A stretch of DNA of 64,000 nt, taken from the NCBI GenBank assembly GCA_000091205.1, contig AP006490.2; one strand, written 5' to 3'. How positions within the stretch are numbered: position 1 is the first letter of the stretch; each line of letters opens with the position of its first letter. Origin of the DNA: Cyanidioschyzon merolae. Lineage: Eukaryota. Both the position numbers and the translations under genes were made by a program. Positions 1 to 21,743 of the stretch are shown here, one piece after another. The notes below the pieces were generated by a model that was given only the letters and a program-made list of their open reading frames with translations, was not told where the DNA came from and made no database searches.

Positions 1-316
1 AGAGCGTCTACATCGCAAATTTCTGGAAGCACAGGCTTCGGGCCTCTTGTCCAAACTTGGCATGGAGCCTTGACACCCATCTGATCAATATGCTTCTCGC
101 ACCGAGACTGGTTTCATTCGCGAAGATGTAGACGTCGGGCTTACGATCTATCACGTACCATGAAAGTCTCCAGCGAGCGCTTGCTACGAAACAGCAGCGA
201 ATTTGGCGCCGCCGGTTACGTTCGCAGACAATCGCTCAGCGCCAAGGCCAGCAACGTTATCGATACCCAAACGCATTCGGCCCGACAAGCGAGCTGTCGC
301 GAAGGAACTGTACGTT

Positions 317-1237: not shown

Positions 1238-1482
1238 AGACTAAGAAATGAGTGGCGATACGGAGTAGCCGGTCAGGGCGCCACACGGACCATTGGTGCG
1301 TCAGCGTGTGGTCGATTTGCGGCCGCGTTCGTATCGCTGGTGTTGCGCTATGCGCCGACTCCAGGCTTTCGCTCGCTCCTTACTGGGCATTGTCGATACC
1401 TACATACGTACAGACGTACGAACAAATCGTAGACTCGGTGGAGTTGACGCGTTGACGGACTGGCGAACGACGGACGAGACGT

Positions 1483-2100: not shown

Positions 2101-2982
2101 GGATGCTAGTCTGTGGTATATTGGTTGTGTGTTTGAATTTCACTGCATCCGAGCAGAAGCTCCCGGATGCGTCCGTGTTACGGGCAACCAGGACAAAAAC
2201 CCGGATTCTTCCTCGAATGCTTCCACTGTTGACGGGCCCAGTAGAGTTTTCCGGTAAGGAGCAGACAGCGGCGACATGCCGGCACCGTCCGCGTGCCGGC
2301 CTGAGCGCAAAACTCGCATCCAGACCGAACCGTTTTTGGCGGTAAGATGCGGATGTTTGCCCGATGCAAGGTACGGTTGCATGCCCCTTGAAGTGCTTTC
2401 TCGTGCGAATGCCACATTTATGTTCGTGAACACGATTGCTCATCATGTTGTTGGATACGGAGATCGATATAGCAATCAGACAGGAAGGATCCATACGAAC
2501 GGCCTGCGCGGTGCATTTGAAATCTCTTTTTTCAATCCATTATCGGCGTTGTTTGAACGCCGCCCCATACCACGCTGATTTAGCTGCTCCTTAAACCCCA
2601 GAGTACCTCAATTGTGGACCCGCTCTTGCAGTGAACGCTGGCGCACCTATTCTTGCGGTAGTCATTCGACCGCGGCGCTGAACAACGTTCCGAATGGCGC
2701 AGCGTGCCACGCCCGTGATAACTCCCGCTTCTGGGGTTCTGTGCAGTCCTGGGGCTCCCAGACTCGTAGCGTATTATTCTTGTCTATGCACGGCGGGTCC
2801 GGGTTCCCGTGCGCATCCCAGGATATTGCACTGGTTTGACGCTTGGGAACGTGTGCTCCCGACGCAAGGCGCCTCAGACTCGCATCGACTCGGTTTACGG
2901 CAGGGGCTCCTGCGCAAAGCCTTCATGCTTCGATACGCAACGATCTTGACACTTCGAAGCGCTATGATGAGCGAAGCACCCG

Positions 2983-3309
2983 TTGTACGCAGTTTTGCTG
3001 CGTCGTTCCGTGCAGGCCTCTGACGCACCTGTTTGCGTAGCAGCGGTCAAACGTGGAACGTCAGCAGACGAAAACTGCCCTGACGCATCGATTATACGCA
3101 GTTTTGCTGCGTCGTTCCGTGCAGGCCTCTGACGCACCTGTTTGCATAGCAGCGGTCAAACGTGGAACGTCAGCAGACGAAAACTGCCCTGACGCATCCA
3201 TTGTACGCAGTTTTGCTGCGTCGTTCCGTGCAGGCCTCTGACGCACCTGTTTGCATAGCAGCGGTCAAACGTGGAACGTCAGCAAACGAAAACTGCCCAG
3301 TATCAAGCC
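2983..3309. repeat. Tandem repeat, 109-bp unit x3 (copies start 2983, 3092, 3201)
   Basis: Direct inspection shows the unit ttgtacgcagttttgctgcgtcgttccgtgcaggcctctgacgcacctgtttgc(g/a)tagcagcggtcaaacgtggaacgtcagcagacgaaaactgccctgacgcatc repeated with only a few substitutions. The six-frame ORFs repeat the peptide RSFAASFRAGL. Confidence 0.9.
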
Positions 3310-3438
3310 TCGCCACCCCGCGAGCCAGGCCATCGGCGCAGTGGGCAAGCGCGCAGCAGCGGCAACTGGAACGATCGGCATGGCGCAGTGAAGTCTTTAT
3401 ATACAAATTTTGTGGAACGTTCATAGCGAGTTCCTGTT

Positions 3439-3571
3439 TCTCGCGTGGTCTAGTGACCGCATCGAGCGACTAGATGTTAGCGTCAAATCGCGTCTGCCTG
3501 AAGCAGACCTTGACAACTCAGATGCCTGGCTTTCACCCAGGAGATCGCGGGTTCGAACCCCGCCGCGAGAA
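3439..3571 (+). tRNA. tRNA-Glu(TTC)-like gene with an approximately 60-nt insertion in the D-loop (non-canonical intron position)
   Basis: The 5' part TCTCGCG-TG-GTCT-AGTGAC matches a eukaryotic tRNA-Glu acceptor stem and D-stem start. After about 62 nt comes AGAT-G, which closes the D-stem. Then follow the anticodon arm CCTGG-CTTTCAC-CCAGG (anticodon TTC), variable loop AGATC, T-arm GCGGG-TTCGAAC-CCCGC, and the 3' acceptor strand CGCGAGA, which pairs perfectly with the 5' TCTCGCG, plus discriminator A. Apart from the oversized D-loop all arms are canonical. Confidence 0.55.
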
Positions 3572-4515
3572 ACCCCTTTTGACATCTTTTCGAATTGGCA
3601 GCGTACTGAGCAAGCGGCTCCCGCGCCGCGTTGGACGTGAAAACGCGTCACCTAAAGAGGCTGCCATCTGTTGTGCATAGTGCAGACTCGTGTTTTGCGT
3701 CGATCTTGCTTTTTGATGCCTATGGATGTGTGGGCATGAGGCCAGCATCATCAACGCTTTACCGTTCCATGCGCGCAAGTTCACGAGATCTGTCCGGGGC
3801 CCAGACGTTGCGTCGCACAGGTACGGTGTGCGAACGGGTATTCGACACTGAATGTGCCGCAGCGACGAAGCGGGTATTGTCGGGCGGGTACCCGGCGAGC
3901 GCTCTACCTACCAGCGCAAGCGCACGAGGGGTGCAAGGAGCAGTGAGCGGGCCCGGCGTCACGTCAGTAACGACGTTGTACGCGAGCATTTGGGGTACAG
4001 GTGTGCCAGGCTGGTACCCGGAGGACGTGTTGTTAGCACGCTCACAATGCGTCCATGCGGAGAATCCGGGGAATCCTTTTCTGCCGCGCAGTGCTTTCAA
4101 TATGCGGGGTCATGCAACCGAGTCAGCGCGTGCATGTTTTCGATCGCGACGCGGGTGCGATTCACGCTGCTGTACCCAGTGGGACGCTCAGTTGCGGAAA
4201 TAGCGTGGAGTTGGTGTGCAATGCTGGGGCCTGGTTGCTCGTGATCCGTTTCGCTGCAACCTGATCATGGGTTCTCGCATGGGGTGGCGGATGGCATTGG
4301 TAGTGCCGTTTGTCGGCTGTGCGCTTGAGCGGGCAAAAAAAGAGCCGGTTGAGAGCGCTGTATGATAGCCGTTACACCACGCCGGATGTGGACGGGGCGA
4401 TTTCCGGCGCCGGGATGTTCGAGGTGTCCGATCGAACCCGGATCTCAGCGGCGCTTTGCCGGAGCTGTCAAGTATAAGCGTGAAATCCGTATATAAAGCC
4501 TTGTGAGGCTTTGGA

Positions 4516-5532
4516 TTGATCGATGCCAGTCGGCTGATGCCTTGGGCGCTACGGGGTGCTGCAGCTTGCCGGTGTCGAGGATTCCAGCCCAGTATTGCAG
4601 TCTTTATGTGGGTCACGAGTGCGTATGCTCGTGGAAACCGGTTTGCAAGGTTCTTCGGCAGGCCCCGTTCTGCAGGAACGTGCGTCAGCGGGAGAATGTG
4701 TTCCATGGAGGTGCCCGCTCCAGCACACTATTCCGGGAACGTCAGCGACGACTTGGTCGCTCTCGCGCGAAGGATCGCTTCGGCCGGGTCTCAGGTGGTT
4801 GCTCGGCACTTTCGCCGAAAGGATTCCTACGTATCTTATACGAAAAAGGACCGCAGTCCTGTAACTGAGATTGACCGACAGGCCGAAGAGGCCATGCGTG
4901 CGGTTATTCGACGTGACGCGCCCGCAGCGCTGCAGGGGGTTCTCGGCGAGGAGCTGTCCGACTCGGACGTCAACCCACGCACTGGAGGCTTTCTCTGGGT
5001 GCTGGATCCGATTGATGGAACCAAAGCTTTCATGTGTGGAAAACCGACTTTTGCTACCCTGGTGGCCCTGCTGCGAGACGGCGAGCCCGTTCTCGGTATC
5101 ATTGAGCAGCCGTTTCTTGGCGAGTGCTGGCTTGGTGTCCACGGGCGACCGACGCTATGGAACACCCAAGTTGCGCATACTAACCAAACAAATACTGAGT
5201 TGTCAGCTGCAATTCTAAGCGCAACAACACCGGCTATGTTCCAGCACGCAAACCGCGAACGTTTCTTCGAGGGACTGGCAGCAAAAGTTTGGCAGGTGGT
5301 TTATGGCTGTGATAGCTACGCGTATGGCCTGCTCGCTGCCGGGTTCATCGACATCGTTGCTGAGGCAGATTTGAAACCCTGGGACTACATGGCCTTGGTT
5401 CCGATCGTTACTGGTGCTGGAGGTATCATCACTGACTGGAATGGTCAGGCGTTAACAGTGGAAAGCGACGGCCGAGTGTTAGCAGCTGCAAACCCCGAAC
5501 TTCACCGAAAAGCGCTCACAGCATTGCAGTAA
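4516..5532 (+). CDS. Inositol monophosphatase-family protein (IMPase / histidinol-phosphatase-like). The likely true start is an internal Met near 4696 to 4705.
   Basis: IMPase-family motifs are present: EIDRQAEEAMRAVI, WVLDPIDGTKAF, YGCDSYAYGLLAAGFIDIVAEADLKPWDYMALVPIVTGAGGIITDWNG. The first 60 residues of the ORF are Cys/Arg-rich and unlike the family. Confidence 0.8.
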   Translation: MIDASRLMPWALRGAAACRCRGFQPSIAVFMWVTSAYARGNRFARFFGRPRSAGTCVSGRMCSMEVPAPAHYSGNVSDDLVALARRIASAGSQVVARHFRRKDSYVSYTKKDRSPVTEIDRQAEEAMRAVIRRDAPAALQGVLGEELSDSDVNPRTGGFLWVLDPIDGTKAFMCGKPTFATLVALLRDGEPVLGIIEQPFLGECWLGVHGRPTLWNTQVAHTNQTNTELSAAILSATTPAMFQHANRERFFEGLAAKVWQVVYGCDSYAYGLLAAGFIDIVAEADLKPWDYMALVPIVTGAGGIITDWNGQALTVESDGRVLAAANPELHRKALTALQ

Positions 5533-6299
5533 TCGTGGACGAGATGATCAGGCTGTTTGCAGTAATGCCCGCGTATTTCCTCAGGGCGCTCCGTACCGAT
5601 GGTGGCACCAATACAGGTACCTTGGAACCAGCATTCCACCTGCGTATCGGGGCGATTCCTGCTCGCTTTCAGAGTGCATTCTTTCGGTCGGTGTGCCTGC
5701 GTCGACGTGGTGCGGAAAAGCTGCGGTAGAGTTTGTTTTTGCGCGTGGTTCCGCTTGGTAGCATCGATTTATCCAGCCCCGGCAACTGAGCCGAGCTTAG
5801 CACGACAAGAGCATGCGCTCGCGCTTGTTCAGGGATATTCTGTGTACGCTCTAGGCGCTCTTTTTTTCTACATGGTAGAAACTCGAGTCCATGCGCCTCC
5901 AGCTGGTCGAGGTATCGCATGCACCTGCTGGTCTTGTTTTTGACCGCGAACCCGCCTCGCGCATCATTCGTACCGGTTTTATTCGGCTGTTGCTGCGCTT
6001 TGCAGAGAATTCCGGAACACCTGTACTAGCACGCCATTTTCTCTGGTAGGTATTCTATAGAAGAAATGTCTCTTGTAGATCGCGGGAAGATCGCGGAGAG
6101 ACTTGATGCATTCAACACATGCTCGAGACAAAAGGCCTTCATTCGATAGGTCTATGATTCTAACATCTGCAAGAGGATGAACCACGCTTGTCGTAGTCCT
6201 CATCCTGAACATCATGCACTAAAAGCAGGACTTGTGGCACTCTACGTATCAGAGCGTCTGCTCATTCATGCATTCCACACCGTAAGTAGTCTAAAAAGT

Positions 6300-6318
6300 C
6301 CCCCCCCCCCCCACCCCC
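6300..6318. repeat. poly(C) homopolymer tract (C11 A C5)
   Basis: Direct reading of the sequence. Confidence 0.9.
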
Positions 6319-8332
6319 AAAGAATCCATAAGATATAAAGTTTCCATACATTTGATTCGAAGGCTGACCAAGAGATGCGCATGGACATAGAATCATGTAC
6401 GCTTCTAACTGCGAATGTCGTGCGCTCAACAAAAATTCTGTCCATTCCGTACGGAAACCCGAACGCTCATTCCATTAGGAATTGATTTCGTCTCAGTCAG
6501 TGAAAGCCCATCCAGGAGAAACGATTCATCTCTAAATGGATACTATAAGAATACCCATGCAACGATGCTGGTGAAGAAGAGCTAAACGAGCACGACGAAG
6601 ATGCCATGCCAAGCAGCGGTACGGTCATGTGCTCGCCAACAAATCGGCAATCGGACAGAACGGATCTGCATTTCATCCTCTTTAAAAAAAGCTCTCTTCG
6701 CGGCTTCTCAATCCCGAATGCTTTTGGCCTGCACTCAGAAAACGTCGCTTTCCACCACACAAAAGCGATCAAGGAGTGCCTGGTTGAGACTGTGATTGAG
6801 CTGCTCTCCGTGGGAGCCCGGGTTCCGAGGTTCAGTCGAGTCAACGGCGTCTCCGCTGTTGACGAAAGCTCTGTTTCGGCTCACGGCTCATTCGACGAGT
6901 CGTTCGCATTCATGGCACCGAGAGCTGCCGGACGGCATTCGGGATGGTGTCGGTTCTTGCTCATGGGAGGCTCGGCGAGCTTCTCCCGCACTCCTGCAGC
7001 GTTTCGAGCATCCGAGGGTAGTAGTTCCGGAAGCGGTGATGTCAGTTGTCCGCATTCCTGTAGCATTTTTTCATCAAAACTTGGTGCAACAAGACAGCTG
7101 ATACTCGGGATCCAAGTCTAACACGGCCTCATCTTAGGATCAGAGATATGCACACACGCTTTCCGAAACCTCAAGAGAAGTAGCTGTACGTGGGTAATCA
7201 GAACGTCTACAGAGCAGGCGCCTGAAAGTATCCAACGAAACATTAAACCCGTATGCGGGTCAATGTCAATTGCTTCATGAAGCGCACCCTGTGGGCGTAG
7301 TACCCCCAACGTACCGGTCTTCGAAAAGCGAGTACTCATCACACAGGGGCCTTGGAATGTCCATGATGGCAAATGACGCGAGCGAGCATCGCCTCGGATC
7401 GTCCAGACCCATCGTGTAGCGCTTGGCTTCGGATCGACGAACGTTGTATCCAACGGATGGTGGGCGCGTCATGCCTGTCCTGCTTGCATCGTACGCTCCT
7501 ACGCTCTGCTGATTAGAGCTCTCCAGCACAGAGCAGACTCCATCCACGAATAGAAGAGGATAATCAATTAGAAACTGATACACAATATGACGGACGACAA
7601 GCCGCCCGGACTTGCGTTATCGAGACAATCGAATGCGAGATTCTCTCTACAGCGTGATCCTAGCAGCAAGCATGCGCACAAGCATTTCCTGAATCGAGAC
7701 TTGGGCGCCTCCAGCTGCATCTCAAAAAGCGTCGTGCTTCCGGAACGTGCAGCGGTATTGTTTCGAGCGAGCATCCCATGTAATGGTGTGGTACGCAGTG
7801 CGGGCAGCATCTGGAAACGCTCAAGACCTCCGTTTCGACCTAACCATTGGCCAGGAGTGCGGGTATTGGATTCTCGCCCGAAGCAAGGCACTCGTATGGC
7901 ACGGTCAGCGATCTAGCAAGGCTGCGATACCGTCCATATGGATCGTAAATAACTTTCCTGGGCTATTGGTGAACGATCGTGAAAGCCCATGATTCGATGC
8001 TACTTGGCATACTGCGCAGCCTCTGATGCGCGGCTCCCGGATCACTGGTGGAAAGATGGGTAGTAACGTCCATCGTTGCACATCCACAGGCATCTCTCTG
8101 TGTCTCTCTAATGCAAGACTCTTGGATTCCTGTTGAAAAAAAGGGCGTTGGCGTCTGTCGCTGTACAAAAACCGGCATCTCAGTGCGAGTGCCGCTGCCC
8201 TCAGACTGCTGCGACCGCGAGTCATCGCAGCGCCGCTCTGAACCTTGATCAGATGCTTTCACCAAGCGAACCCAGTGCTCTTTGCATCCGCCTTGTTAAA
8301 AAAAGGTCATCAGGGTTGGCACAACAAGTTCG

Positions 8333-9019
8333 TCACTCACCAAATGTGTTGGTTGCAGGGTGCGCGCTTCGCCACTGCTCGGCCCGCGGTGCGCTGAAAC
8401 ACGACGCGTTGCCCTCGACTTCCCCCAGGATACAACAACGCACGGCTATCCAGTCAGAAACTCGGTTATAATGGATCCAGCGAGCCTCCGAGGCGCCCTG
8501 TCCCGCCGCCTCAATAAGAACTGCCGCCAGTAGGTGCTTACATAACGATATGTCCGCACAGCTACACGAACAGCGTAGAGGGCACGATTCACACAGGTAG
8601 GGCGCCCCTGAAAGCGGTCGACCTGGTCGAACAAGCGCAAACCACTGAGCCTTAGTACAGTGCAGCGTGATGCGTTTTGATTCGCTCGCAGCGAGTTCCA
8701 GTGCTGCATCCAAGGTTGCCGCGTTGCAGCCACTCAGAACATAGAGCGCAACAAGCTGGTCGTTGGTTAGCGTGCCGCGACTTGCTCGAAGCTCTTCAAC
8801 GAGTCGATTGAAAAGCTCTTCCGTCCATAGTTCTGCTAAACGAGCTGCTGCGTCGTCGTCCAACCTGCTGTCTACGTCCATGACAACACAACAGAAAGGT
8901 GTGGGATTTTGAGATCTGACGTCAACGCGACGCGGTCTAGGCACCTCACCGTTGCAGCGAACGCGGCGCTTCCAGTCGTCAGAAGCAGCGTCTCGGAGCT
9001 CTATTTCTGAAACAAGCAA
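8333..9019 (-). CDS. SWIM-type zinc-finger protein, possibly SWS1/ZSWIM7-like (228 aa)
   Basis: CxCxnCxH signature: CPLRCSCSCADISLCKHLLAAV near the C-terminus. Small size fits ZSWIM7-like proteins. The rest is unrecognised. Confidence 0.45.
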   Translation of the reverse strand: MLVSEIELRDAASDDWKRRVRCNGEVPRPRRVDVRSQNPTPFCCVVMDVDSRLDDDAAARLAELWTEELFNRLVEELRASRGTLTNDQLVALYVLSGCNAATLDAALELAASESKRITLHCTKAQWFALVRPGRPLSGAPYLCESCPLRCSCSCADISLCKHLLAAVLIEAAGQGASEARWIHYNRVSDWIAVRCCILGEVEGNASCFSAPRAEQWRSAHPATNTFGE

Positions 9020-9523
9020 CGCAAGAGCTTTTAACTTTATTTAAAAACACTATCCGCCAGACAAATACGATGGTGTCAGCGAAGAACGCTGTACGCAGAT
9101 CATACAACGAGCGGTGGAGCCGGACGAAGCACACGAACGACACCGTCGTGAATCCAAGCAGGGGCACTGGTGCCGTTCGAGCCCCCGTGGATACCATCGA
9201 GGCTCCAACGCGTTGACGCGAAGCACGAAAGGTTGCGGAACGCGCTATGCCGCAAATATGGCACTGCCGTGTCTGCTGGCTTTCGATCAGCAAACAAAAG
9301 GTTCAGTTGTGTGCTCTGAGACGCAACTCATCAATCCAGTGCATCGGTTTTGGAACCTTTGATGTGCAGCGCAAAGCATATCGTAATGCAGAGCGGGTGT
9401 TTCAGAAACACGCTTGGCCTCGCCCGCGGCATCAATGGCCGGTGCGGACGCTTGTGATCCTTCCGTGCACATGTGCAACATTCCCAGAGATGCCCGCCAT
9501 ATACTGATGCCCATGAGCGTCGT

Positions 9524-9550
9524 AGCAGCAGCAGCAGCAGCAGCAGCAGC
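9524..9550. repeat. (AGC)9 trinucleotide microsatellite
   Basis: agcagcagcagcagcagcagcagcagc read directly. Confidence 0.85.
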
Positions 9551-10011
9551 TTCTACGCAAATGCCCCGATAACCTGCCAACACCGCCGTATTCGCAAGCG
9601 ATCATCGTCTGAACGAACAGTGATCTCCAAAGGCAAGTCTCGATGGTGGCGATGGTGATGCCGATGGCATTCGCGTACCCAAAGATCCCTGCTTCAGTGC
9701 TAGAATCTCGCACACCATAAGAAAAGCGAGCGAACATGATGCTCCACTGACGTCTCATGGCGAGCGCATACCGGTGTCGATCGCCGTGCACGAGCAGCAT
9801 CGGCCCCGGCAAGCGCACAACACGACGCACGACAAGCAAAGTCGCAGGCGTGCAAAAATGTAACGCAAAGGCGAACTCGCTCGTTCATCTGGGAGCATCT
9901 GGTTGCTCGCTTCAGCTCTAGACCATAAATAAAGCGCGAACACAAACACATAACGTACCCTTGATCATATCCAGTGAATCCGGGCAGGGCACACCACAAC
10001 AGCCTTCGACA

Positions 10012-11370
10012 TCAACCAAACGTATCATAGTCACGGTTTGCATTACGGTTCGATGACCAGAAGGGTGCGCGTTGCAGAGGTCGCCACCGCGTGCCAGCGG
10101 CTGCTTGTCGCACTGGTGATATCGCTCCTGCTGGTGTGTCGAGAAGCAGAGGCTCGCTCAGAATCGGACCGACGGCAACGTTCGCGCTCGCTTCGTGATC
10201 GCGCTCCAGCGCCTGACTCGCCTCAGTGGCAGCTTCGTTTTCAGTTCGATGAGCGGCCCGCTCTTCCCAGCGGTAAATACACAGGCCAATGAGGATCACG
10301 ACAAGGCCAACGAGGTCATACCAGTCGACGGGTTGCGCCTCATCGCCCATGAAAAATGACATGCAGAATGCAAAGCTCACCAGAGGGAGACGGAGCGTCA
10401 TCAGCATCGTATAGAGCGTTGCACCCCCGTGTTTGATCACCAGGATGCCGAATACATTATACAAGATGTTCGCAATCATATACAGAAGAACTGGGAGCCA
10501 TGCCCCCCGACAATGGTCGCACGGCGGCAGGGATGTGCCGTCGTCCCCGCGCTCTATTATGCAGTCGGTGCGAAGGACATCTTGACCGAGTAAGCACTTG
10601 ATTCCGTTCAGAAGAAGGCTAGGCAAGTCATGCAGTGGGACGCGGGCCGGTCCAAAAAGCCGCAGGGAATTCACCGGAATCAAAGAGAGCCCGATCAAGG
10701 ACTGATACCAGGCGATGTAGAACATGACTATGAACACGCTCATCTCTTGGCCGCGAAGGGCGTATTCCTTGTACACATGGGCTAGAGATTGCGGCAGTTG
10801 TGCAGCGAGAAACACCAAATTGAAGAACAGGAGGTCAACAGTGCCTGTGCTTGTGCTCCCGCTGCTGTGGATACCAATGAGCCGTGGCGTTAACACGACA
10901 AGTGCCCCTCCGATGATGACGCCCGCCGCAACAAACTGATGTACGACGTATCGCGTCCCGAGAATGCAAGCGGACCAAAACATGGTCATGGGGATGCTGG
11001 CCTGGACGAGGATCATTTGTGTTGTGCCGCGAGTGTAGACACCTCCGAGGACGGTGCAGATTCCTGCGATTGCCTCTAGGAGACCGACAAAAGCGAGCTT
11101 GAGCTGCGGCAGCTCCTCATCTTCCAATGGCGACGGCCGATCGAAAACGCGCTTGAAGAGCAGCACGAGGCCCAGGACTGGCAAGTAAATCCAGCTCGTG
11201 ACCTGCGATAGAAAATAGGGATAATTTGGCATGGTATTTGTCATACGCTTGAAGAACACAGCATTCCAAACCGAGAAAAAAAGCAGTGCCGATGCATAAA
11301 CGCCCAGAACGCTCTGCTTTAGCCATCGGTCCGCAGGCTGGGACGGTTTCCAACTCGAAGCGCTGCTCAT
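10012..11370 (-). CDS. CRT-like (chloroquine-resistance-transporter-like / CLT) drug-metabolite transporter superfamily membrane protein, 452 aa
   Basis: Several blocks align to PfCRT/CLT: FKRMTNTMPNYPYFLSQVTSWIY (compare [23 protein letters not shown]), ILVQASIPMTMFWSACILGTRYVVHQFVAAGVIIGGALV (compare VLQLSIPINMFF..ILRYRY...GAVIIVVTIALV), and CDHCRGAW (compare CDDCDGAW). Many hydrophobic helices. Confidence 0.85.
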   Translation of the reverse strand: MSSASSWKPSQPADRWLKQSVLGVYASALLFFSVWNAVFFKRMTNTMPNYPYFLSQVTSWIYLPVLGLVLLFKRVFDRPSPLEDEELPQLKLAFVGLLEAIAGICTVLGGVYTRGTTQMILVQASIPMTMFWSACILGTRYVVHQFVAAGVIIGGALVVLTPRLIGIHSSGSTSTGTVDLLFFNLVFLAAQLPQSLAHVYKEYALRGQEMSVFIVMFYIAWYQSLIGLSLIPVNSLRLFGPARVPLHDLPSLLLNGIKCLLGQDVLRTDCIIERGDDGTSLPPCDHCRGAWLPVLLYMIANILYNVFGILVIKHGGATLYTMLMTLRLPLVSFAFCMSFFMGDEAQPVDWYDLVGLVVILIGLCIYRWEERAAHRTENEAATEASQALERDHEASANVAVGPILSEPLLLDTPAGAISPVRQAAAGTRWRPLQRAPFWSSNRNANRDYDTFG

Positions 11371-11562
11371 ATTGCTCGCTTATCGCGTGCGCTACGCTGT
11401 CGACGGACAACGTACCAGGTTTTTTCGTCGTTCCAAACAGGTTCTGGATCTCGATGTGGTAACGCAATATCTTTGCCAGAATAAATACAGGACGCGTGTC
11501 CACGCAGCGCCTCCAGCTAAACGAAAGCGAGTTCCGGGCCCAGGTGCGTACGCCGCAGACGG

Positions 11563-11722
11563 ACCGGAATCCTTCTACGAGGACTCGAAACTCGCAAGTG
11601 ACTGTTTGATGGAGCTTCTCGGTGATCCGCGGCGGAGTGAGCTCTTCATCGCCTTGACTGCAGCAGCGGAAAGCGGATGGGACTTTGTCGCGCTGGCTGC
11701 GCGATCGGCGAAGCCTGTGCTC
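11563..11722 (+). repeat. Dispersed duplicate (about 95% identity, 160 bp) of an internal trehalase coding segment (trehalase nt 17330-17491)
   Basis: Direct DNA comparison: accggaatccttctacgaggactcgaaact(c/t)gcaagtgactgtt(t/c)gatgga(g/a)cttctcggtgatccgcggcggagtgagctcttcatcgccttgactgcagcagcggaaagcggatgggactttt(c)gtcgcgctggctgcgcga(t/c)cggcgaagc(c/a)tgtgctc. It encodes the trehalase AESGWDF motif. It is not part of an intact gene here. Confidence 0.85.
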
Positions 11723-11819
11723 ACACACCAACAACGCCGCTCTAAAGTCGAACGACGTCGGGCGTGTACAGTAGTGGCAGCAACCGCGCCCTCGACAAGA
11801 CGTCTCCAACTGACGCGCA

Positions 11820-14270
11820 GACGCCTCCCCGTCTTATTGGACCGGCCACCGATTACTGCTTCCAACTTTTTCTCATATAGTTCCACTTTGAGAGGTTGCC
11901 GCACAAAATTCTCTCTTGTCAGCGCTGGAGGTCTTCTTTCCAGCACCGCACATCTCCTGATATTGATAGTGGCATTAAAGTCTCGATTCACAAACTCCAT
12001 ACGCCTCTTGCCATCATTGGTTGTACTTACTAGTGCAAGTGGCCCTCACACTTTTGCCCTCCTTTCCATTTGCTCCTCCGTCAGCGGTCTATACTTCTTT
12101 ACATCTTCAGGGCTCCTCTGGCACTTTTCCATCTCGACCCTCTGAAGTGTACAACCCAGCTCGTGGTGTGTATAAGATGTTCGGAACTCATCTATCGGTA
12201 TTGTAACGAAACGCCGTGCGCACTCCTTGTACACCCTCGTCGTTGGAGCTGGCGTAGCTCCTTTCTTGGGCGCTCAGCGCCCTGCTCCGTACGCTACTAC
12301 CAGCCTTTGGCTCTCGTCCTCCTTCAGGGCGTTCAACTCATTGAAAAAGTTCGCGAGCACGCGCTGCCTCCCACCGTATAGACTCATTCGCAGACGAGCC
12401 CGCCGGGGCTTTGTATACTCCTCCCGTAGCGCCTCCCGATGAGGAACACGAACTTCCATGACTTTCCGAGAAGCTTGAAAGTGTGCTCCGCGGCCCGTCA
12501 CCTCGCTCAAAGCTTCCAGGTGATCCTTCATTCCTGCATCCCATGCAGGAATTTTCTTCCTCGCATTCATGACTCCCGATTCTCGATAGTATCTTGCTCT
12601 CGGGAACCTCAAAAGACGCATGTCTTTCTGACGCAAGGAACCGTCAGTACTATCTTCCGCACGCTACGCTGCGCGATGGTTATGATACTCGTATTCTCAG
12701 GGTCCGCGCCAACGACAAAGTCGTTACCCTGCACTTTCTGCGTCGCAGGACCCGCCTCCTTCTCATCTTCCTGCTTCACCGCGTCAACGACAAGATCGTT
12801 ATCCTCCACCTCCTGCGTCGCAGGATCCGCCGCTTTGTTTTCTGCATCCTTCGTCACGGGCGAAGCCGAGAGCGGGACTGAACGATCTTTCTTCAACCGC
12901 CGATAGTGTACACACAAGGCTACTCCATCGGTTTCGATCAACCCAGTGAATACCTTTTGTTTGCTCATTTTGAGCCGTTTGAAATTGAAGATGTTCTTCC
13001 AGTACGTCTCCAGGTTTTCACCGATGAACTCTTCCCTGTTAACATCGAACTCGGGAATGATCTCCCTCATGATGCCATAAAGGATTCTGGAGTCGATAGT
13101 CACAAAATGTGACTTGAAGTTGCACAACGGAACGACACTGAAGCGCTTACCCACTAGGGCAGCCTTCCGTCTCTCCCACTCTTCATTTTTCTCTCACTCA
13201 GCTTCATCTCTGCCTTGCGTTTGAGTTCTCGGTCCAAAATCACGAAATACCGCAGGACGAGGCGATAGTATCTTTCCTTATCTTTTTCAACTCTGATATC
13301 TTTTCTGTTGGATTAACCAACCCCAGTACCGCACGATGCTCTTGTATAACCGCGCGGATGACGGAATCCTCATTCGTGCTCTTGTTTGACGCCTTCTTGT
13401 CGACGACTTCGACCTCATCTTCATGCTTACGATCTTTCGTGATGCCATTGATAATCGCCCATTTTCCATTGCGAGATAGGCTCTGGTAGAGTGCAACCAC
13501 GGCGCGTATCATGAAACGTTCGAGGTTCGCTGTCAAATGGTTTTTCAGATTCGTGAGGTACTTCATCGCCCCATATGTGTAAATATCCCCGTCACCCTTG
13601 TATCGAGTACCATTGAAGCTGTAAAAGGGATGTTTTTCGTGGAGGGCATGCATTCGCTCGTTTTCCCTCCGCGCTTCCCCTGTAACAAGCATCAGCTGAC
13701 GAATAAAGGTCATGTCGAAAAACTCGTCCGGAATTTCGACTGTTTCCATATGCGTCACGTCGCGATACATCTACCTCGCCAAATGCATCAGTCCTGACGA
13801 CGCCTTGACAATACTCTCGGAGTCTGACGCAACACGTTTTTCGATAGCGTCTCGCAACGTTTCCCTGTTGGGATCCTTGATATGTTTAAGAAGACAGCCT
13901 TTAACCACCATCTCGTCGTACAGTTGTCTTTTTTGCCGGCTTCGACGTAGGACCTCACCTTTTGCTTCTTTTTCTCTTCCTTTTCTTCTGGAATCGGCAC
14001 TGTTTTTTGTTTTTTTTTCTGGCAGCCGGCGACACTGGGCCTCCAAGATCGTGGACTTGCTTTTTCATATCTTTCCTTTTTTTGTTTTTTTTGAAAAGGA
14101 ACGCTCTTTGGACGCTTGTGGTATATGCTGCGAAAAAACACTTGACTAGACTTGTTTGAAGTTTTAAACAAAAATGAGCTGAAAGACTGTACTTTGCTAC
14201 GAACTGAACGGAAATCCAACTTTTTACAGCTGAACAACACGCTTCTGATCGAGATCACGTTTCCCTTCAA
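11820..14270 (-). mobile_element. Degenerate Fanzor/TnpB-like (IS605 OrfB-family RuvC nuclease) gene, about 2.4 kb. It has a Lys/Arg-rich N-terminus, is broken by in-frame stops and frame changes, and carries a conserved 3' noncoding block.
   Basis: The minus-strand pieces are co-linear with TnpB. (i) K/R-rich N-terminal pieces (13788-14270 and 13771-14046). (ii) 13240-13770, in frame with the preceding piece but separated from it by one TAG. (iii) 12609-13154 in another frame, containing [15 protein letters not shown] (a possible RuvC-I). (iv) 12274-12636, 12046-12234 and 11575-12000, all in one frame and separated only by TGA codons. Together these read LYGGRQRV...MYKECARRFVTIPIDEFRTSYTHHELGCTL, which matches the TnpB consensus YKaewyGr.vv.vdP.yTSq.Cs.CG. 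Then comes EFVNRDFNATINIRRCAVL, which matches RuvC-III DRDxNAAxNIxRR. I checked ATG GAG TTT GTG AAT CGA GAC TTT AAT GCC ACT ATC AAT ATC AGG AGA by reverse-complementing 11953-12000. The 3' end at 11820-11829 is revcomp GGGAGGCGTC, shared with the other copies. Confidence 0.5.
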
Positions 14271-16235
14271 CGGCGAGATACATGTCGTGTCTCATGTCTG
14301 CCTGATCTCCCAGGTGCGCTCACCGATCGATGAAGGTCACGTGTCCGACACCCCGCCTTGGCACTTGCGTGTTCGCATCGCGCAGCAGCAAAAATCAGGT
14401 GTCCTAAATCGAAAACTCACGTGGAGTAGTCTCGTGCTATAGGCTATGTCGCTGGTGCTGACGCTACTGCCCATCGCATTACCGCCCTGACAGACATGGA
14501 GCTGTTGGGGCCTGGCACGATACCTCTCGACGCTTCTATCAAATGCGTAGCGTTCTCTGCGGCTTACGCTTGTGTGGATAAGATACGCATCACTCTACTC
14601 AATAGGAATTTTGTTAGTTTTATTGATCGTAAACAAACAAGGTACGGTAGGATTCCTGAACACGGATACAAGTTTATTTCCTATGCTTGTAATGCATGCT
14701 GCACGGACGCTGGAATAAGGAACTGACATGAATTTTGCTTCTTTCCGGCGTCATGGGCTGGTACTGATGACCGTTCAAGTCATTTTCCATGCTATCGTCA
14801 TTGCCCAAGTTATGGTGCCTGCTACTGTCTCGGACCCGGTGATCTTGACAGAGGCATAGCACACAGGTAGCGTCCATATCTGCCACGACGTTTGAGCCTT
14901 GCATCTCGCCTGGCACGATCGAGGAACCCGATAAAAGCACATACTGTATTCTTATCTACTCTATAAGATTAGTTTCAAGAGCCTAACCTGTATGTAGTTG
15001 TGCAAGCACCAAACCGTAAACTTATCTGCACCCCCTACGCCCCCCGCCATTCCTTAAGCAAGCGGATGTTCGTTAGCCACCTGCTGATTTTTCCCTTCCA
15101 GTAGTAAAACTGCTCAAGAGACGGATTTTTTCTCTATCCCTTACCGTTCAATGGAAAGAAAACGTTTCACGACCATGTAGGGTAAATTAATATCCAATCA
15201 CAGACGTCTCCTAGCCTTTTCCACCGGCCCCCTGCTATCGGTTGCAGCTTCTCTTTGTACAATTCGACCCTGAGAGGATGTCCCAGAAAGGTGGACCGCG
15301 TCAGCTCCGCCGGTCGCGCCTCCATCACCATTCGTCTTCTGATATTGATGAGGTTTTGTCGAAAACGCTAGTGATAGAGCTGAGGTCAAGAAACGATCCA
15401 TCTTGACTGGCGCTATCAAACGATCGGTACCAGAAGCTGGAGGCTGCAGCCGGCACCAGGTGCTCTGGTGACGGCATGCTGGCCGTGAATAGTGCGCGAC
15501 GAAGCCGCACAGCATGCTACGGTTTCCTAGTACGTAGGTAAAACAAGCGCGTACCCTAAACGTTCATATTCAGGGCGATGACTAGTCGCCGCCACGGTAT
15601 CCTGGGAAAAATATGCGAGTGCACTTTGGTTGCTCGACTATCGAGCACCATCACGAGTATGGGTGCACTTCACTACACGGTTTCCAACGATCATTGAATC
15701 CACCATCATCCAAAAGTGACGAAAAGTCACAAGCGCACCGGCCTCGTACCTCCAAGTCAGGACTTGCCCATCAGCACGCACACAAATTTCGTGACCCGCT
15801 GCGCATTCACCAAACGAAAGGAAGCACGCGTTTCTTCATCCAGGGATAGAGGGTTCCAAATTCCTTCAGAGACTGCCGATGCTTCGCCCGAACCCAGACC
15901 ATCAGCTGCGGTATGCCCACGAGCATAAACCGGATGCCTGCGATTATCTGCGTCATCAATGTAAATCCTGCCCACACCAGTACCTCAAATGTGTGTCGTT
16001 CGGACACGACACAAGCTCGAAAACCAAGCCGTATGGGGCCTGTCGCAAGCGCCAGTGGCACACCAGGTTGCCAAGCTCACAAATGCCAAAGCACACCACG
16101 CCTATCCAAAAAAAGGCGGCAGCGTCAGCAGCGGAAAGCACCAGCTCTATTGATCAAGAAGCGCATCGATGCGCTTCTCGATCGACGAAACGCGAGCTCC
16201 GCGAGACGCATTCGCCATCAGTTGACGTATAGAAC

Positions 16236-18332
16236 GTGTGGTACTATGCAACTGTTCAGTACCGTAACCTGAGCACCATGACATTGAAAGTCATAGAAGC
16301 GTATGTGCATATGGCTTTTCGTCTGGGCGCGTTGGCGCCTGCATTTCCGAGTTCGGTTGTATACTGTGCCGCCAACTGCGCTGAAACTAGTGCCGGCTGT
16401 GAAAAGTCGCTGCTCGCAGTCGTTCAGCGACTCCGCATTTTCGCTGACTCAAAACACTTTGTGGATCTGCCTCTGCTACCTGGGCGAATACCGGAGCGGA
16501 TCATAGAGTACTGGGACGCTGAGTTCGGTCGCCGCGTTGTTGAGGAGCCGCTGGCGGGCCCAGGCGAAGCAACCAGCGGGCTCCGCGAGGCCGAGCGCGA
16601 GCCCCCTGTGCCCACCTTTCGGCTAGCACGTGTCGAGGGACCTGACACCGACTTCGAGGAGGTACGTCGCTTTCTGTTAGAGCACTTTGACTACGCGCCT
16701 GGTGGCGACTTGCTTGCCTGGATCCCGCGGGACTTGCCGCAGTTGGAGCTGGACCCTGAACCTGGAACGACAGCGACTGGTTCGCCACCGTTGCTGCACC
16801 AGATCTGGCGCTGGATGAAAGCACAGGATGTCGATGCGGGAAACTGGCTCATGGATATGGTCGCACGCTGGCGAAAACTCGGTCGCGAGACCTCGCCGAT
16901 GGTGTTCAGAGAACCTGAACGCTTCAGTCTGCTGCCCCTGAAACATCCATTCATCGTGGCTGGTGGTCGATTCCGCGAGTGCTACTACTGGGATACCTAC
17001 TTCATCGTTCGCGGCCTTCTGGTCTGCGGTATGTGGGAGACTGCGCGCTGCTGCGTTGAGAATCTTCTCGATCTGGTAGAGCAGTTCGGCTTTGTGCCCA
17101 ACGGTGCCCGCATCTACTATCTGAATCGTACCCAACCACCACTACTTTCGGATATGGTGCGCTGCATTGCAGAGCATGCACATGCCGGATGGGACGTGAT
17201 GACATTTTTGGGGCGAGCGTTGCCGCTTCTGGAGCGTGAATACAACTTCATGATGGAGCAACGGGCGGTAAAGATGCGCGCAGGGGGAACCCTAAATCGT
17301 TACCATGCGCCCGCAGCCGAAGGACCGCGACCGGAATCCTTCTACGAGGACTCGAAACTTGCAAGTGACTGTTCGATGGAACTTCTCGGTGATCCGCGGC
17401 GGAGTGAGCTCTTCATCGCCTTGACTGCAGCAGCGGAAAGCGGATGGGACTTTTCGTCGCGCTGGCTGCGCGACCGGCGAAGCATGTGCTCCATCCGAAC
17501 GCAGTTGATTATCCCTGTGTGTTTCAACAGTTTCATGCTTCGCATGGAACGCAATCTCGCTTTTCTCTACCAATGGTATATCAGCGGTAGCCGACCGGAA
17601 ACGGAAAAAGGTAGCATTTTCGAACAGCGGTTACCTGGAAATGAGGAGGTCCCCAATGACCCAGTGACAAGAGACTTGCTTGATCGAGTCCAACAGCGGG
17701 TCTCTACGATGCAAAAGTATTTATACGTACCAAGCCGGGATCAATGGATCGACTACGACCTGGAGGCCGATACAACGACCCTGCAAACGGTTGCAGATTG
17801 GCGGCAGACGGTGAGTTCGAGCAACTTTTTCCCGCTCTGGAGCGGCATCCTCGAGCATATCGAATCGGAACAAGCGGCTTCCATCGCGCGTGGCGTGCTC
17901 CAGTCGTTCGAGGAGAGTGGTCTCCTGCAAAACGGAGGCGTTGTTGCAACATTGGTGACCGATTCGGGTCAACAGTGGGATTACCCGAACGCGTGGCCAC
18001 CCGTGCAACTCCTGCTGCACGAAGCGTTTGCGTCGCTAGCGACGCAGTTTTCCGCGAATGAGCAAATCTCCAACCGAGCTCGCGAACTTTCTTTGCAGAT
18101 AGCCATCCGATTTCTGCGTTCTGTATACCAGGGCTGGCTTCGGAGTGGTGATCTTTTCGAGAAGTATCACGCGGAAAAGGTCGGAGAGAGTGGCAACGGC
18201 GGTGAATACGTTCCCCAGGTTGGATTCGGATGGACAATTGGGGTGAGCCTTGCGCTCTTGTCCAGTGTATGGCAGCTTGATCGAAGCCTGCTCGCACAAG
18301 TCTGGCAGAGGGTATCCGATGAAGCCACATAA
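16236..18332 (+). CDS. Neutral trehalase (glycoside hydrolase family 37), 698 aa from the first ATG. The probable start is the signal-like Met at about 16311 (MAFRLGALAPAFPSS).
   Basis: GH37 signatures: YCAANCA...LLAVVQRLRIFADSKHFVD, GGRFRECYYWDTYF, GPRPESFYEDSKLA, AESGWDFSSRW, QWDYPNAWPP. One continuous ORF with no introns. Confidence 0.9.
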   Translation: MWYYATVQYRNLSTMTLKVIEAYVHMAFRLGALAPAFPSSVVYCAANCAETSAGCEKSLLAVVQRLRIFADSKHFVDLPLLPGRIPERIIEYWDAEFGRRVVEEPLAGPGEATSGLREAEREPPVPTFRLARVEGPDTDFEEVRRFLLEHFDYAPGGDLLAWIPRDLPQLELDPEPGTTATGSPPLLHQIWRWMKAQDVDAGNWLMDMVARWRKLGRETSPMVFREPERFSLLPLKHPFIVAGGRFRECYYWDTYFIVRGLLVCGMWETARCCVENLLDLVEQFGFVPNGARIYYLNRTQPPLLSDMVRCIAEHAHAGWDVMTFLGRALPLLEREYNFMMEQRAVKMRAGGTLNRYHAPAAEGPRPESFYEDSKLASDCSMELLGDPRRSELFIALTAAAESGWDFSSRWLRDRRSMCSIRTQLIIPVCFNSFMLRMERNLAFLYQWYISGSRPETEKGSIFEQRLPGNEEVPNDPVTRDLLDRVQQRVSTMQKYLYVPSRDQWIDYDLEADTTTLQTVADWRQTVSSSNFFPLWSGILEHIESEQAASIARGVLQSFEESGLLQNGGVVATLVTDSGQQWDYPNAWPPVQLLLHEAFASLATQFSANEQISNRARELSLQIAIRFLRSVYQGWLRSGDLFEKYHAEKVGESGNGGEYVPQVGFGWTIGVSLALLSSVWQLDRSLLAQVWQRVSDEAT

Positions 18333-18974
18333 ACCGTGCGGGTCCTGATGCTGTCATGACCTCTGCGTTTACCTCAGCGTAGATTGGCGCTCGACGATAG
18401 ATTTTTGTTTATGAATGCATGTTTATTTATGTGTATGTGCTCCAAGTTTCCCGCGCTGTTCATTCGCGAGCCCGCGATAAACACAGCCTCCAACGAGCGA
18501 CAAGAATCTTGATTTTATTCGAGACGATTGGCGTATCGCATATTTGATCGATTTGAGGCACTTGAAGACTGCAGAAGTTTTCCATCAGCCGAATACATGC
18601 ATAAATAGATGTATTGTCTCAAGGGAAGGGCAGTATCCCTTTCTCAATGATCCGCAGCTGGCTAGCTCGCTTTTTCTGAACGAGGTACCCAAAATCAGTC
18701 ACCGAACAACGTATCACCGGGTCAGGCTCGAAGCGTCTACGCTGCGTCCGGCGTGAACGTGCCTAGACTTGCTCTGTCCCGGATGCTGGACCCTGATAGG
18801 CCGTTGAAAGCACTCGAACCGTGCATTCCGCCTCGGATACGCGTTCAACAACGGAGTCGTATGTCGTTTCATCAATCTGCCGTCAGCAAGAAGGCAGCGG
18901 CAGCTGCGCTCGTACAGACTCGGCATAGCGAGGTCGATCTCGCATCGAGTTCGCCCGAGTATTCACGATTCGCA

Positions 18975-21743
18975 TCAGTTGCTGTCGTGGACAGTTGCGA
19001 GCACACAATGTTCACCAGTCAGTCGGTAGAGGAGGCGAGCGCGCTCCTCATTGTCTTCGGTTCGCGCTTCCAAGACATATTCCCGCATGTGCGGGGTTTC
19101 CAGAACAGCCGCCTCATCGAGGTCAAAGATCGAGCGCGTCAAGTACTCCAGAAGTGCTGTTTGCACCGGTGCTGCTGTTGGCGAAGCATACGGCCCCGGA
19201 AGCGTCAGCTGCCCATGTTGAAGCAATTCATCTAAAAGCTCCATACGATCCTGGAAGACTCGTCGCAAAAGTTGCACGTGCACCCAAAGCGTCAGCAGTT
19301 GATCGATCTCGTCCATGCTGTGCTGCAGGTGCGCACCCAGAACACCAGTCTCTGGCACAGAGGACTGGAAAAGCGCAGCACACGCAGCCGCTGTGGACTC
19401 GAAACAGCGACGAAAGCCCGTTACATACTGGCGTTCGATGCTAGACTGGCAGCAGATCGCTTGCCAGAGCGCTCTCACACACTGCATAGCCCCGAACTCG
19501 AGCAGTCTCTGCCATTGCTGTCGACTTGGTTCCGAGTCATCCGGAAAGAAAGATGCCTCAGCTTTGGCAGTCGCGTTGCCCGTGGGTGTCCCATTGGCCC
19601 CTGGATTTGCGTCGTACAGGGATGCGCACCGGTGTGGATCGTTTTCAACAGAAAAGATGCCTTCCGTCGAGGTGTCATCCGCGGCAACCGGCATTTGCGC
19701 ATCAGAATCCACTTCAGCCTGGCCTAGCGCCTCAGGATCCGACTTTACAGCATGCTCGCTTGCCGCACCATGCAGTTGCTTTCGTGTGCCGGCCGTCTGC
19801 AGGTGGCCCGGTCTACTGGGTACAGGCGCTGGCTCAGGTGACGGGAGCGAAGCTGAAGCAACCCCTTGCCCAGGGCTGACGGAGCCCAAAGCGCGTCCCG
19901 GCACCCGTACTGTGTATGCCTGCGATCCGAATGCATCGGACGCAAACGCTACTGCCGTTTGCTCAAGAGCTACCGCACCGGCCTCTCCGCGAATTCCAGC
20001 GTTCAGCGCATACACAGGCGTAGCAGAGGGAGCCTGTGCTCCAGCGCTCTTTTCAGATGCGACGGCTCCTCGATTCCTGGCAGCTGGGCATGTGCTTTCC
20101 ACTGGAACCCGTTGAGATTCTACGCTAGCCGCTGCGGCGTCAAGAGGTGTCGCCTCCGGTGTTGATTTCTGCAGATTCGCACTCGCCAGTCTATTCAAGC
20201 TCTCTAGTGTCACACGAAGTTCTGCCGCAACCGTCCCGTCGTTCTCGCTGTGCAGCCCTTTTGGCCATGAATTTGCAATCAAGGCGTCGTCGACGCACGC
20301 TCTCAACGCTTCCAAGAGCGGACAAATCAGGTGCCTTGACGTGAACACCCTGCTGGGCTGCTCTGGATCCAGGGACTGCTCAGTATCACTGATCGATACG
20401 GAGCGGAGGATGCGAATCAGTTGCACAAGTCGTCTGACGAGTTGTCTCAACAGTCGCATCTGTGTCCAGTGTGGCACCGGCATTACTTTCCGTGGCATGC
20501 TGGACATGGGTTCGGCGTCCAGGCTTTCGCTCGGTAACCAGAGGATCCACTCTGGTGCATCCAGCAGATCCATGCTTTCGTAGGCAGCGAGCGACCTCAG
20601 TGGCCATCGCAGCATCAACGCAAGCCGCAGGGCATCCGCATCTACAAGAGGCGATGTGACTAAGCCCTCGGACTCGACCGCTTCGGGTTCCAGCACTACC
20701 TCATAGGTCAGGGCAATCTCAAGCCGCTCTTGTGTGATGCTCCTGTTCGTCTCCGTGGCGCCTGGCGAGAGCGAAGGTGTTACGATATGCTGGCGAAAGA
20801 ATGCCAACAAGGATTCCAGATCCTCGATATTCGCAGGAGGTGTAGATAGCACGCGCATTTCGTAATGCCGCAATGCAAACCCATCACCAATCCCTAGTCC
20901 GCGGTACTCGGTTGCAGCTTCCGTCATCGTAGCGCTTGTTTCAACGAAAACTGTCGTGGGCATCATTGTCATCGAGACGCTGGTGCAGTGCTTACGGTCC
21001 TGGGGCTCAGTCGACTCTACAGAGTGTGTGCTTCCGTTTCGCTTGTTGAGCGTCGTGCACTTCCTCCTGGGACCAGTCTCGACGTCTGAGGTACAGTCGG
21101 GTGTCATACACTGGCGCCCCGCTCCGCGAGACTGCCATAGAACGCACGCGCTTTCACCAGGCTGGTCTTGATCGGTCTGTAGACAGGTCGTGGCAACGAA
21201 GAAAAGTGCGCCAACTGCAGCTTGAACCCAGTCACGATATGACGATAGTGCTGGCGTCAAACGGAGTAGCCAGTACGCAGGAACGCCAAAGAGTCTCACG
21301 AGCCCCAGAGGTTGCGCCACCTGCCAGGTTTCATCGCATACGAGGAAGAGCTCTGCAGACACACGAGTGCTTGTCGATGCGTCTTCCCTGCAGGTCGTCC
21401 AAGGTGTCCAGGGTGTCCGGTCCAGTGCTGGTGGCAGTGCGACCGTCAACGACTGTCGTACGGCTCCGGGTACGGTATTACGAGTTGCCACCTGCGTAAC
21501 CAAGGCCTTTGCGGCTTCTTCTAAAGCGTACACGAGGTCCTCCCAGGGCGTGTTCCGACTGAAGTCTTGCGTGACGCTGGATTCTCTTGGTAATAGCAGG
21601 CGGAAGCCCGGGATACGCAGGTTTGGCCACCGGAAGTCTGCTGGCGTGCCACCGCTGGGCACTTGTTGCTCCTCAGCGTCGGAGCGGCCTGCCATAGGCA
21701 CCTGACAGCCTTGAGGCTGGGCCCGGAATGGACGCCTACGCAC
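18975..21743 (-). CDS. hypothetical protein, 922 aa, no recognised domain
   Basis: Very long uninterrupted ORF with coding-like composition and both acidic and Ser/Ala-rich stretches. Its length argues it is real. No family identified by eye. Confidence 0.55.
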   Translation of the reverse strand: MRRRPFRAQPQGCQVPMAGRSDAEEQQVPSGGTPADFRWPNLRIPGFRLLLPRESSVTQDFSRNTPWEDLVYALEEAAKALVTQVATRNTVPGAVRQSLTVALPPALDRTPWTPWTTCREDASTSTRVSAELFLVCDETWQVAQPLGLVRLFGVPAYWLLRLTPALSSYRDWVQAAVGALFFVATTCLQTDQDQPGESACVLWQSRGAGRQCMTPDCTSDVETGPRRKCTTLNKRNGSTHSVESTEPQDRKHCTSVSMTMMPTTVFVETSATMTEAATEYRGLGIGDGFALRHYEMRVLSTPPANIEDLESLLAFFRQHIVTPSLSPGATETNRSITQERLEIALTYEVVLEPEAVESEGLVTSPLVDADALRLALMLRWPLRSLAAYESMDLLDAPEWILWLPSESLDAEPMSSMPRKVMPVPHWTQMRLLRQLVRRLVQLIRILRSVSISDTEQSLDPEQPSRVFTSRHLICPLLEALRACVDDALIANSWPKGLHSENDGTVAAELRVTLESLNRLASANLQKSTPEATPLDAAAASVESQRVPVESTCPAARNRGAVASEKSAGAQAPSATPVYALNAGIRGEAGAVALEQTAVAFASDAFGSQAYTVRVPGRALGSVSPGQGVASASLPSPEPAPVPSRPGHLQTAGTRKQLHGAASEHAVKSDPEALGQAEVDSDAQMPVAADDTSTEGIFSVENDPHRCASLYDANPGANGTPTGNATAKAEASFFPDDSEPSRQQWQRLLEFGAMQCVRALWQAICCQSSIERQYVTGFRRCFESTAAACAALFQSSVPETGVLGAHLQHSMDEIDQLLTLWVHVQLLRRVFQDRMELLDELLQHGQLTLPGPYASPTAAPVQTALLEYLTRSIFDLDEAAVLETPHMREYVLEARTEDNEERARLLYRLTGEHCVLATVHDSN

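Follow-up and report, generated by a model that had tools for sequence, protein, structure and literature searches.

A trehalase gene fragment flush with the 3' terminus of a degenerate Fanzor1 element in Cyanidioschyzon merolae

The trehalase fragment and its surroundings

The window, that is, the whole stretch of 64,000 nucleotides analysed here, was traced by exact protein look-ups to chromosome 8 (739,753 bp) of Cyanidioschyzon merolae 10D, and its open reading frame at 43230-45548 was found in the same way to be CMH110C. The features on which the argument turns are as follows.

10012-11370, minus strand: CRT-like/EamA transporter gene (BAM79780.1), co-oriented with the CMe-1A copy
11541-11561, plus strand: trehalase homology perhaps continuing weakly across the distal junction of the fragment (12 of 21 bases match)
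11562-11722, plus strand: trehalase-derived fragment, found by local alignment, blastn, a repeat search (family D5) and tblastn (amino acids 344-405)
11723-11829, minus strand: 3'-terminal region of CMe-1A, from the GRRL codons (GGGAGGCGTC) to the terminus ...GGCGTTGTTGGTGTGT, from an anchored alignment
11732-11760, minus strand: conserved subterminal hairpin, with an 11-bp stem and -16.5 kcal/mol in the window copy
11723-14992, minus strand: degenerate CMe-1A (Fanzor1) element, delimited by the coverage of 78 loci; family from Bao & Jurka 2013
15220-16037, minus strand: short relative of the element, similar in its 3' part to the Fanzor1 C-terminal/3' module, 84% identical to L027:101-914
16199-22258, plus strand: segment of ~6 kb (trehalase, a 922-aa gene and a zf-met gene) with a nearly identical duplicate on another chromosome
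16278-18332, plus strand: trehalase gene ('probable trehalase', BAM79781.1), intact, 684 aa from the first ATG
17329-17491, plus strand: source segment within the intact trehalase gene (local alignment, blastn)

The fragment aligns with its source, 5.6 kb away in cis and in the same orientation, with 156 of 161 bases identical; five substitutions and one 2-nt deletion separate the two (95.7% over 163 columns, blastn E=7e-71). An earlier, sequence-only reading of this DNA had reported a co-oriented duplicate of about 95% identity at this distance and an undisturbed trehalase reading frame, and our alignment bears out both statements. Codons about 350-405 of trehalase are copied, in sense orientation, and the 2-nt deletion shifts the reading frame. 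Because independent metagenome contigs (L001-L004, L092, L093, L095 and L096) have the fragment in the identical position, an assembly artefact is ruled out. C. merolae-like strains are 99.2-99.6% identical across the region, with only two polymorphic sites inside the fragment among close-strain contigs, and all ten contigs from close strains have both fragment and element, none of them showing an empty or intermediate site. The duplicate is real and is fixed in the C. merolae lineage.

Both edges of the fragment, at 11562 and 11722, are sharp; the alignment that the earlier reading had proposed places the breakpoints there and gives the following matches at the junctions. Microhomology at the transposon-side junction amounts to 0-1 nt; to the right of the fragment 9 of 21 bases match trehalase, and the sequence there is transposon. 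At the distal junction, the 12/21 match follows a 6-nt offset at a GACCG-C-GACCG repeat, with a P of about 0.002 in a fixed register and of about 0.03 when 13 registers are allowed. Elsewhere in the spacer, blastn (word size 7) and tblastn over its whole length found no trehalase homology past 11546-11723, and tblastn of the protein against 1-16000 and 18401-64000 found no other repeat better than E=0.16. One tblastn match at 15759-15878 (E=2.1) was considered as a trehalase remnant and rejected, as it lies inside another transposon (15220-16037). The same reading had named, as the finding that would tell against it, a larger decayed trehalase paralog extending on both sides; what lies there is transposon on the right and, on the left, the 12/21 match and then nothing, and such a paralog is disfavoured.

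The trehalase gene has a second copy, BAM81219.1, on the other chromosome, whose full-length protein is identical to BAM79781.1 at 681 of 684 aa, the trehalase proteins of the two 10D segments thus differing by 3 aa; the window gene is likewise uninterrupted. The 6-kb segment is found in two genomic contexts, contig L005 diverging from the window at 22258. Since L005 has no private differences over 6021 nt when compared with L006-L014 from metagenome strains, we infer that the two 6-kb copies undergo concerted evolution. Identity between the two gene copies is at least 99.8%; the fragment differs from the gene by ~3%. In eight assemblies there is a break at 16166-16227. In addition, metagenome contig L097 opens (1-86) with trehalase 17475-17560 joined to 17220; as a real truncated variant this was rejected, being an assembly oddity, probably a misassembly loop near the duplicated segment.

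Fragment, element and trehalase gene all lie in a lineage-specific block. In Cyanidiococcus yangmingshanensis (L098, VWRR01000014.1), the transporter ortholog (67% identical) and a CIA30/NAD-binding gene are divergent neighbours only 926 nt apart; in the window the latter gene lies at 26555-28375, and the gene order past it (a 1328-aa gene, COQ7 and Raptor) is shared, synteny being kept on both flanks apart from this interval. The intervening ~11.4-26.8 kb of the window (11371-26822, about 15 kb) has no counterpart at the Cyanidiococcus locus and holds the fragment, CMe-1A and, close upstream of its 5' end, the short related element; it also contains the trehalase segment, additional genes and two TE-N2-like repeats in inverted arrangement. 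This pair (25350-25900 and 25950-26449, about 470-550 bp) is situated just upstream of the CIA30 gene, matches the region directly 5' of the CMe-1A body in 21-25 loci and is probably of TE-N2_CMe type. Tandem repeats occur elsewhere in the window at 55150-56409 (period 120 nt, at least nine copies, 98-99% identical), at 32086-32535 (period 150 nt, within the 1328-aa ORF) and at 2973-3298 (period 109 nt).

It would be tempting to see in the fragment a relic: the element would have inserted into an earlier trehalase copy at this place, the rest of that copy would have been deleted, and the intact gene would have been re-created or re-inserted to the right. The lineage-specific and transposon-rich nature of the block, missing at the syntenic Cyanidiococcus locus, fits this idea, as do the origin of the fragment from directly 5' of the presumed insertion site, in the correct orientation, and a divergence (3%) that exceeds that of the gene copies and suits an older origin. 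However, no trehalase remnant is present past the element's 5' end or elsewhere in 11371-16200, the fragment stops abruptly on its left, three or more additional rearrangements would be required, and insertion inside a coding sequence is atypical for CMe-1A, as shown below. We therefore hold a relic to be rather improbable.

Decay and 3' terminus of the CMe-1A copy

One Fanzor1 family has been described in C. merolae, namely CMe-1A, with about 150 copies that are about 80% identical to a consensus of ~3 kb; it lacks TIRs, neither its TSDs nor its 3' terminus could be established, and a separate element, TE-N2_CMe, corresponds to its 5' 635 bp (Bao & Jurka 2013, PMC3627910). The element studied here resembles this published family (PMC3627910) in organism, in length (about 3 kb), in the lack of TIRs, in its Fanzor1 ORF, in the identity of its copies (about 80-85%) and in the occurrence of its 5' part as separate short elements (window 25350-26449). 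Relatives of the Fanzor1 protein numbered 231, all of them metagenomic, and metagenome contigs contained at least 402 related stretches; 80 of these loci were taken for comparison. Most copies share 11723-14329, over which the window copy is 80-86% identical to the others; the 5' part (14330-14992) is common to seven loci, to which similarity reaches 14742-14992. The 5' regions are heterogeneous, and BLAST boundaries there are not true termini.

The TnpB/Fanzor-like protein is encoded on the minus strand from about 11840 upward and bears the motifs GADPENTS and NRDFNATINI. With the D of ...GADPGNT... and the RD of ...NRDFNAAINI... as the criterion, RuvC-like motifs are present both in the family alignment (GADPGNTNIITIA and FVNRDFNAAINIR) and in the window copy (GADPENTSIITIA and FVNRDFNATINIR). 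For the zinc finger we looked between these motifs for the pattern [TS][TS]-x-x-C4 of Bao & Jurka; the consensus there, DEFRTSYTHHELGCTLQRVEMEKCQRS, has TS, two Cys and two His and no canonical CxxC...CxxC. No Pfam family matched the protein at E<=0.01, a PDB profile search returned no chain except a chance match to angiogenin (E=0.43), and the AlphaFold model (pLDDT 34) was too poor for fold support. The assignment to Fanzor1 is accordingly a putative one, drawn from the motifs and the published C. merolae family. Compared with P0054 and P0115, the frame of the window copy runs in the order -2, -1, -3, -2, with three changes and two in-frame stops: the copy is a pseudogene with no intact nuclease ORF. 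The Fanzor1 ORF also contains an acidic 25-aa tandem repeat (..KDEEKKEAGPATQEVEDNDLVV..; window 12704-12852, columns 230-390 of alignment A2), whose copy number varies widely among element copies.

The sequence-only reading had taken GGGAGGCGTC as the end of the element and had placed the fragment about 100 bp past it. The distance holds, as the fragment starts 97 nt past this motif; the end does not. GGGAGGCGTC (11820-11829, minus strand) encodes G-R-R-L near the Fanzor1 C-terminus, intact relatives' proteins stop about 12 codons past GRRL (...GRRLHVSWRRLL), and homology between the window copy and others continues beyond it, to stop at 11722-11735 in many loci. A further occurrence of GGGAGGCGTC at 39249 was rejected as an element mark, being a chance match within the Raptor ORF. 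Because copy-to-copy homology runs to 11722-11735, the fragment directly adjoins the true 3' end.

In an anchored alignment of 48 distinct 3' ends, the GRRL codons are followed, in conserved order, by about 55 nt, CCACTACTGTACAC, a hairpin, TT and some 8 nt in which GGTG is usually present; past this point the flanks diverge among copies. The hairpin, about 8 nt from the terminus, takes the form CGTCGTTCGA-CTT-TCGAACGGCG or the variant CGTTTTTC-TTTT-GAAAGGCG, and ViennaRNA folds of 47 copies keep the stem in both sequence variants; RNAalifold on a MAFFT alignment, in which the hairpin variants do not fall into register, finds for that reason only a 3-bp helix. This conserved structured module overlaps the end of the Fanzor1 ORF. 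The window junction reads ...GGCGTTGTTGGTGTGT|GAGCACAGGC..., where the bar is followed by the fragment in reverse complement, beginning at 11722. Judged by the aligned ends, the fragment is flush with the canonical 3' terminus (~11723), to within 0-3 nt, and the tie to the guide-proximal end of the transposon is closer than had been claimed. The terminus, the hairpin and the placement upstream of genes described below go beyond the available part of the Bao & Jurka account (PMC3627910).

Several other sequences in the window and beyond call these ends to mind. The elements at 34450-35050, 47170-47750, 28384-28780 and 15220-16037, which are short and 65-78% alike, retain nothing but the 3' module and the coding part for the Fanzor1 C-terminus, and may be non-autonomous derivatives with an omega-RNA-like end. 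The 5' end of the long form (14993-15020, and in the 5' flanks of L032 and L086) lies 14-30 nt downstream of a sequence resembling the 3' terminus of another element (..GGTTTGGTG / ..TTGTTGTTGG), and elements may insert just past existing 3' ends. In Cyanidiococcus, a hairpin-plus-GGTG motif, CGTTTTTGAAAGAAACGCTGCGGTG, occurs about 150 nt upstream of the transporter ATG (L098:9850-9890); as an element 3' end it was rejected, alignment having given no support for homology.

The flush fragment occupies the position at which the guide of a TnpB/Fanzor omega-RNA would start, the 3'-flanking sequence of the Fanzor omega-RNA being known to act as guide (Saito et al. 2023, PMC10432273). The locus is like these systems (PMC10432273) in that the fragment lies at the exact guide position beside a structured 3' module, and unlike them in that the flank is a copy of a host gene and not a native insertion target, and in that the nuclease gene is degenerate. 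One could thus speculate that the flank might serve as an omega-RNA guide by which a Fanzor1 supplied in trans would be directed against trehalase, or that read-through from the element might yield an antisense trehalase RNA, a role that the start of the fragment at the terminus and its retention in all strains examined would suit. Retention is nevertheless no sign of selection, since the strains are too close (99.2-99.6%). The ORF of the window copy is dead; the first 20 nt of the putative guide mismatch trehalase at positions 8 and 18 (the trehalase target being GAGCACATGCTTCGCCGGTC, with GGATG before it); the bases at the TAM position differ, GTGT at the locus against GATG at the gene; and C. 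merolae is reported to lack RNA interference machinery (PMC11376382). No Rfam family matched 11400-12400. Because the element is a pseudogene and two of 20 guide positions mismatch, an active guide role is unlikely, and we give a functional guide or antisense role very little credence.

The junction might also be a trace left by Fanzor acting, under RNA guidance, on a host gene. In a first version, the flank would have been a natural omega-RNA guide against the two trehalase genes, the two mismatches being escape changes; in another, the patch would have been copied during repair of a Fanzor-induced break. If true, this would be the first natural case of a eukaryotic transposon nuclease engaging a host gene, but we consider either version a very long shot.

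Placement of CMe-1A upstream of host genes

The 3' flanks of loci L015-L094, in which ORFs of at least 150 aa were counted, reveal a strong regularity. At 24 of the 43 distinct CMe-1A copies, the first ATG of a co-oriented ORF lies -3 to +135 nt from the 3' terminus, as against 6.9% at control positions (binomial p=3e-17); only five copies face the 3' end of a convergent gene. ORFs flanking these 43 copies either start or stop at the 3' terminus, and none of the copies was seen to interrupt a coding sequence. In the window, the ATG of the transporter BAM79780.1 lies 352 nt past the element terminus, or 191 nt if the fragment is left out, and the window copy thus matches the family placement, with the transporter downstream, if the fragment is taken as an extra insert. 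This pattern suggests targeted insertion at gene 5' ends, or promoter activity of the element end.

That other copies of the element might carry gene fragments at the same position, as the earlier reading had asked, found no support in a screen of limited sensitivity. None of the 78 other loci carries trehalase sequence, which argues that the fragment is not part of the mobile unit, and self-BLAST of the CMe-1A flanks returned other repeats only. RPL37A, at L017, L018 and L020, was considered as a captured gene fragment and rejected, since it is a complete gene ~40 nt past the element, its ATG following about 40 nt after the hairpin. Transduplication of the Pack-MULE or Helitron type was rejected as well, the fragment being outside the canonical terminus and present at 0 of 78 other loci.

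A different route by which host DNA can come to adjoin a transposon is local 3' transduction. L1 elements perform 3' transduction, and Helitrons capture genes by end-bypass. Under this explanation, CMe-1A would once have lain antisense in trehalase at 17491/17492 and would have hopped 5.6 kb with read-through, carrying 161 nt of flank, the donor gene being restored by conversion from the paralog on the other chromosome. The junction is flush with the canonical terminus; a local hop would fit the proximity; repair of a disrupted copy is plausible, given that both trehalase copies evolve in concert; and the new site, upstream of a co-oriented ATG, is usual for CMe-1A. The locus is also like L1 and Helitron transduction in that the host DNA is contiguous with the 3' terminus, and like Helitrons in its subterminal 3' hairpin about 10 nt from the end; Helitron2 elements carrying Fanzor1 have been described (Bao & Jurka 2013, PMC3627910). 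However, no donor site was found, the window trehalase being uninterrupted and the protein of the second paralog full-length, and the fragment is absent from other CMe-1A copies, no sibling with a trehalase flank occurring among 78 loci. Unlike Helitrons, CMe-1A is unclassified and lacks TIRs, and no RepHel protein was seen. Moreover, 0 of 43 distinct copies interrupt a coding sequence, the distal end of the fragment lacks, on inspection of its sequence, the hairpin-plus-GGTG terminus signal, and three events are required. For these reasons we regard transduction as unlikely, though it deserves to be kept in view.

Origin of the fragment and its significance

Among the three origins offered by the sequence-only reading, a repair footprint and transduction are both possible, while an old paralog remnant is disfavoured for want of continuing homology. 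The explanation we prefer, to which we give a little less than an even chance, is that a break at the 3' terminus of CMe-1A was mended by copying in a patch of the trehalase gene, which lies 5.6 kb away. CMe-1A would first have inserted just upstream of the co-oriented CRT-like transporter, as is usual for the family. A break would then have occurred exactly at the 3' terminus, for example during an abortive excision or transposition attempt; the free end would have copied a short stretch of trehalase by template switching, as filler DNA, and rejoined the original flank, with the source gene left untouched. The patch would subsequently have drifted, or would have been copied with errors, to give the five substitutions and the 2-nt deletion. 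On this view, the fragment itself is a copy made at the level of DNA and has no function: 161 bp out of the middle of trehalase, joined directly to the terminus of a dead CMe-1A.

Several points favour local templated repair. By our own arithmetic, an unrelated 161-bp insertion would fall within 3 nt of the terminus at only ~0.1% of positions in the 4.9-kb spacer; the flush junction points to a join made by the element's own end chemistry. Since the source is only 5.6 kb away in a genome of over 16 Mb (PMC11050394), a local mechanism seems indicated. The two sharp edges, the usual placement of the family and the lack of trehalase sequence at the 78 other loci also speak for the patch. It is this proximity, together with parsimony (two events only), that leads us to favour a local templated repair patch. 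Furthermore, ectopic recombination of trehalase segments in this lineage, as suggested by the 6-kb paralogs without private differences, supports the patch model.

The patch model also has its difficulties. A break specific to the terminus is assumed. Template switching usually leaves junction microhomology, and none is clear at the transposon-side junction (0-1 nt). In addition, the ~3% divergence of the fragment, set against gene copies at least 99.8% alike, requires that conversion acted on the long copies only, or that copying was error-prone. Finally, close strains offer no empty or intermediate site, and in Cyanidiococcus the 15-kb block is missing altogether.

Filler DNA and templated insertions at double-strand breaks or transposon-excision sites are known from plant Ac/Ds and Mu footprints, from polymerase-theta end joining and from MMBIR/FoSTeS. 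The C. merolae fragment is like them in its small size (~160 bp), its sharp edges, its intact source nearby in cis and its position exactly at a transposon end, and unlike them in having no clear junction microhomology. To our knowledge, an event of this kind has not been described for Fanzor or TnpB elements. The fragment is ordinary in kind, whether filler DNA or transduction, and new for Fanzor elements.

Taken alone, the fragment is a small structural scar. It fixes the 3' terminus of the C. merolae Fanzor1 element, which comprises the hairpin plus about 10 nt and lies ~97 nt past the GRRL codons, and it marks this terminus as a place where DNA has been joined to the sequence of a host gene. 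Should such copies give rise to omega-RNAs, replacement of the flank would be a simple route to a guide against a host gene. The placement of the family upstream of co-oriented ATGs is probably a more useful lead than the fragment, and points either to targeted insertion at the 5' ends of genes or to a promoter role of the element end, in a genome that is very compact.
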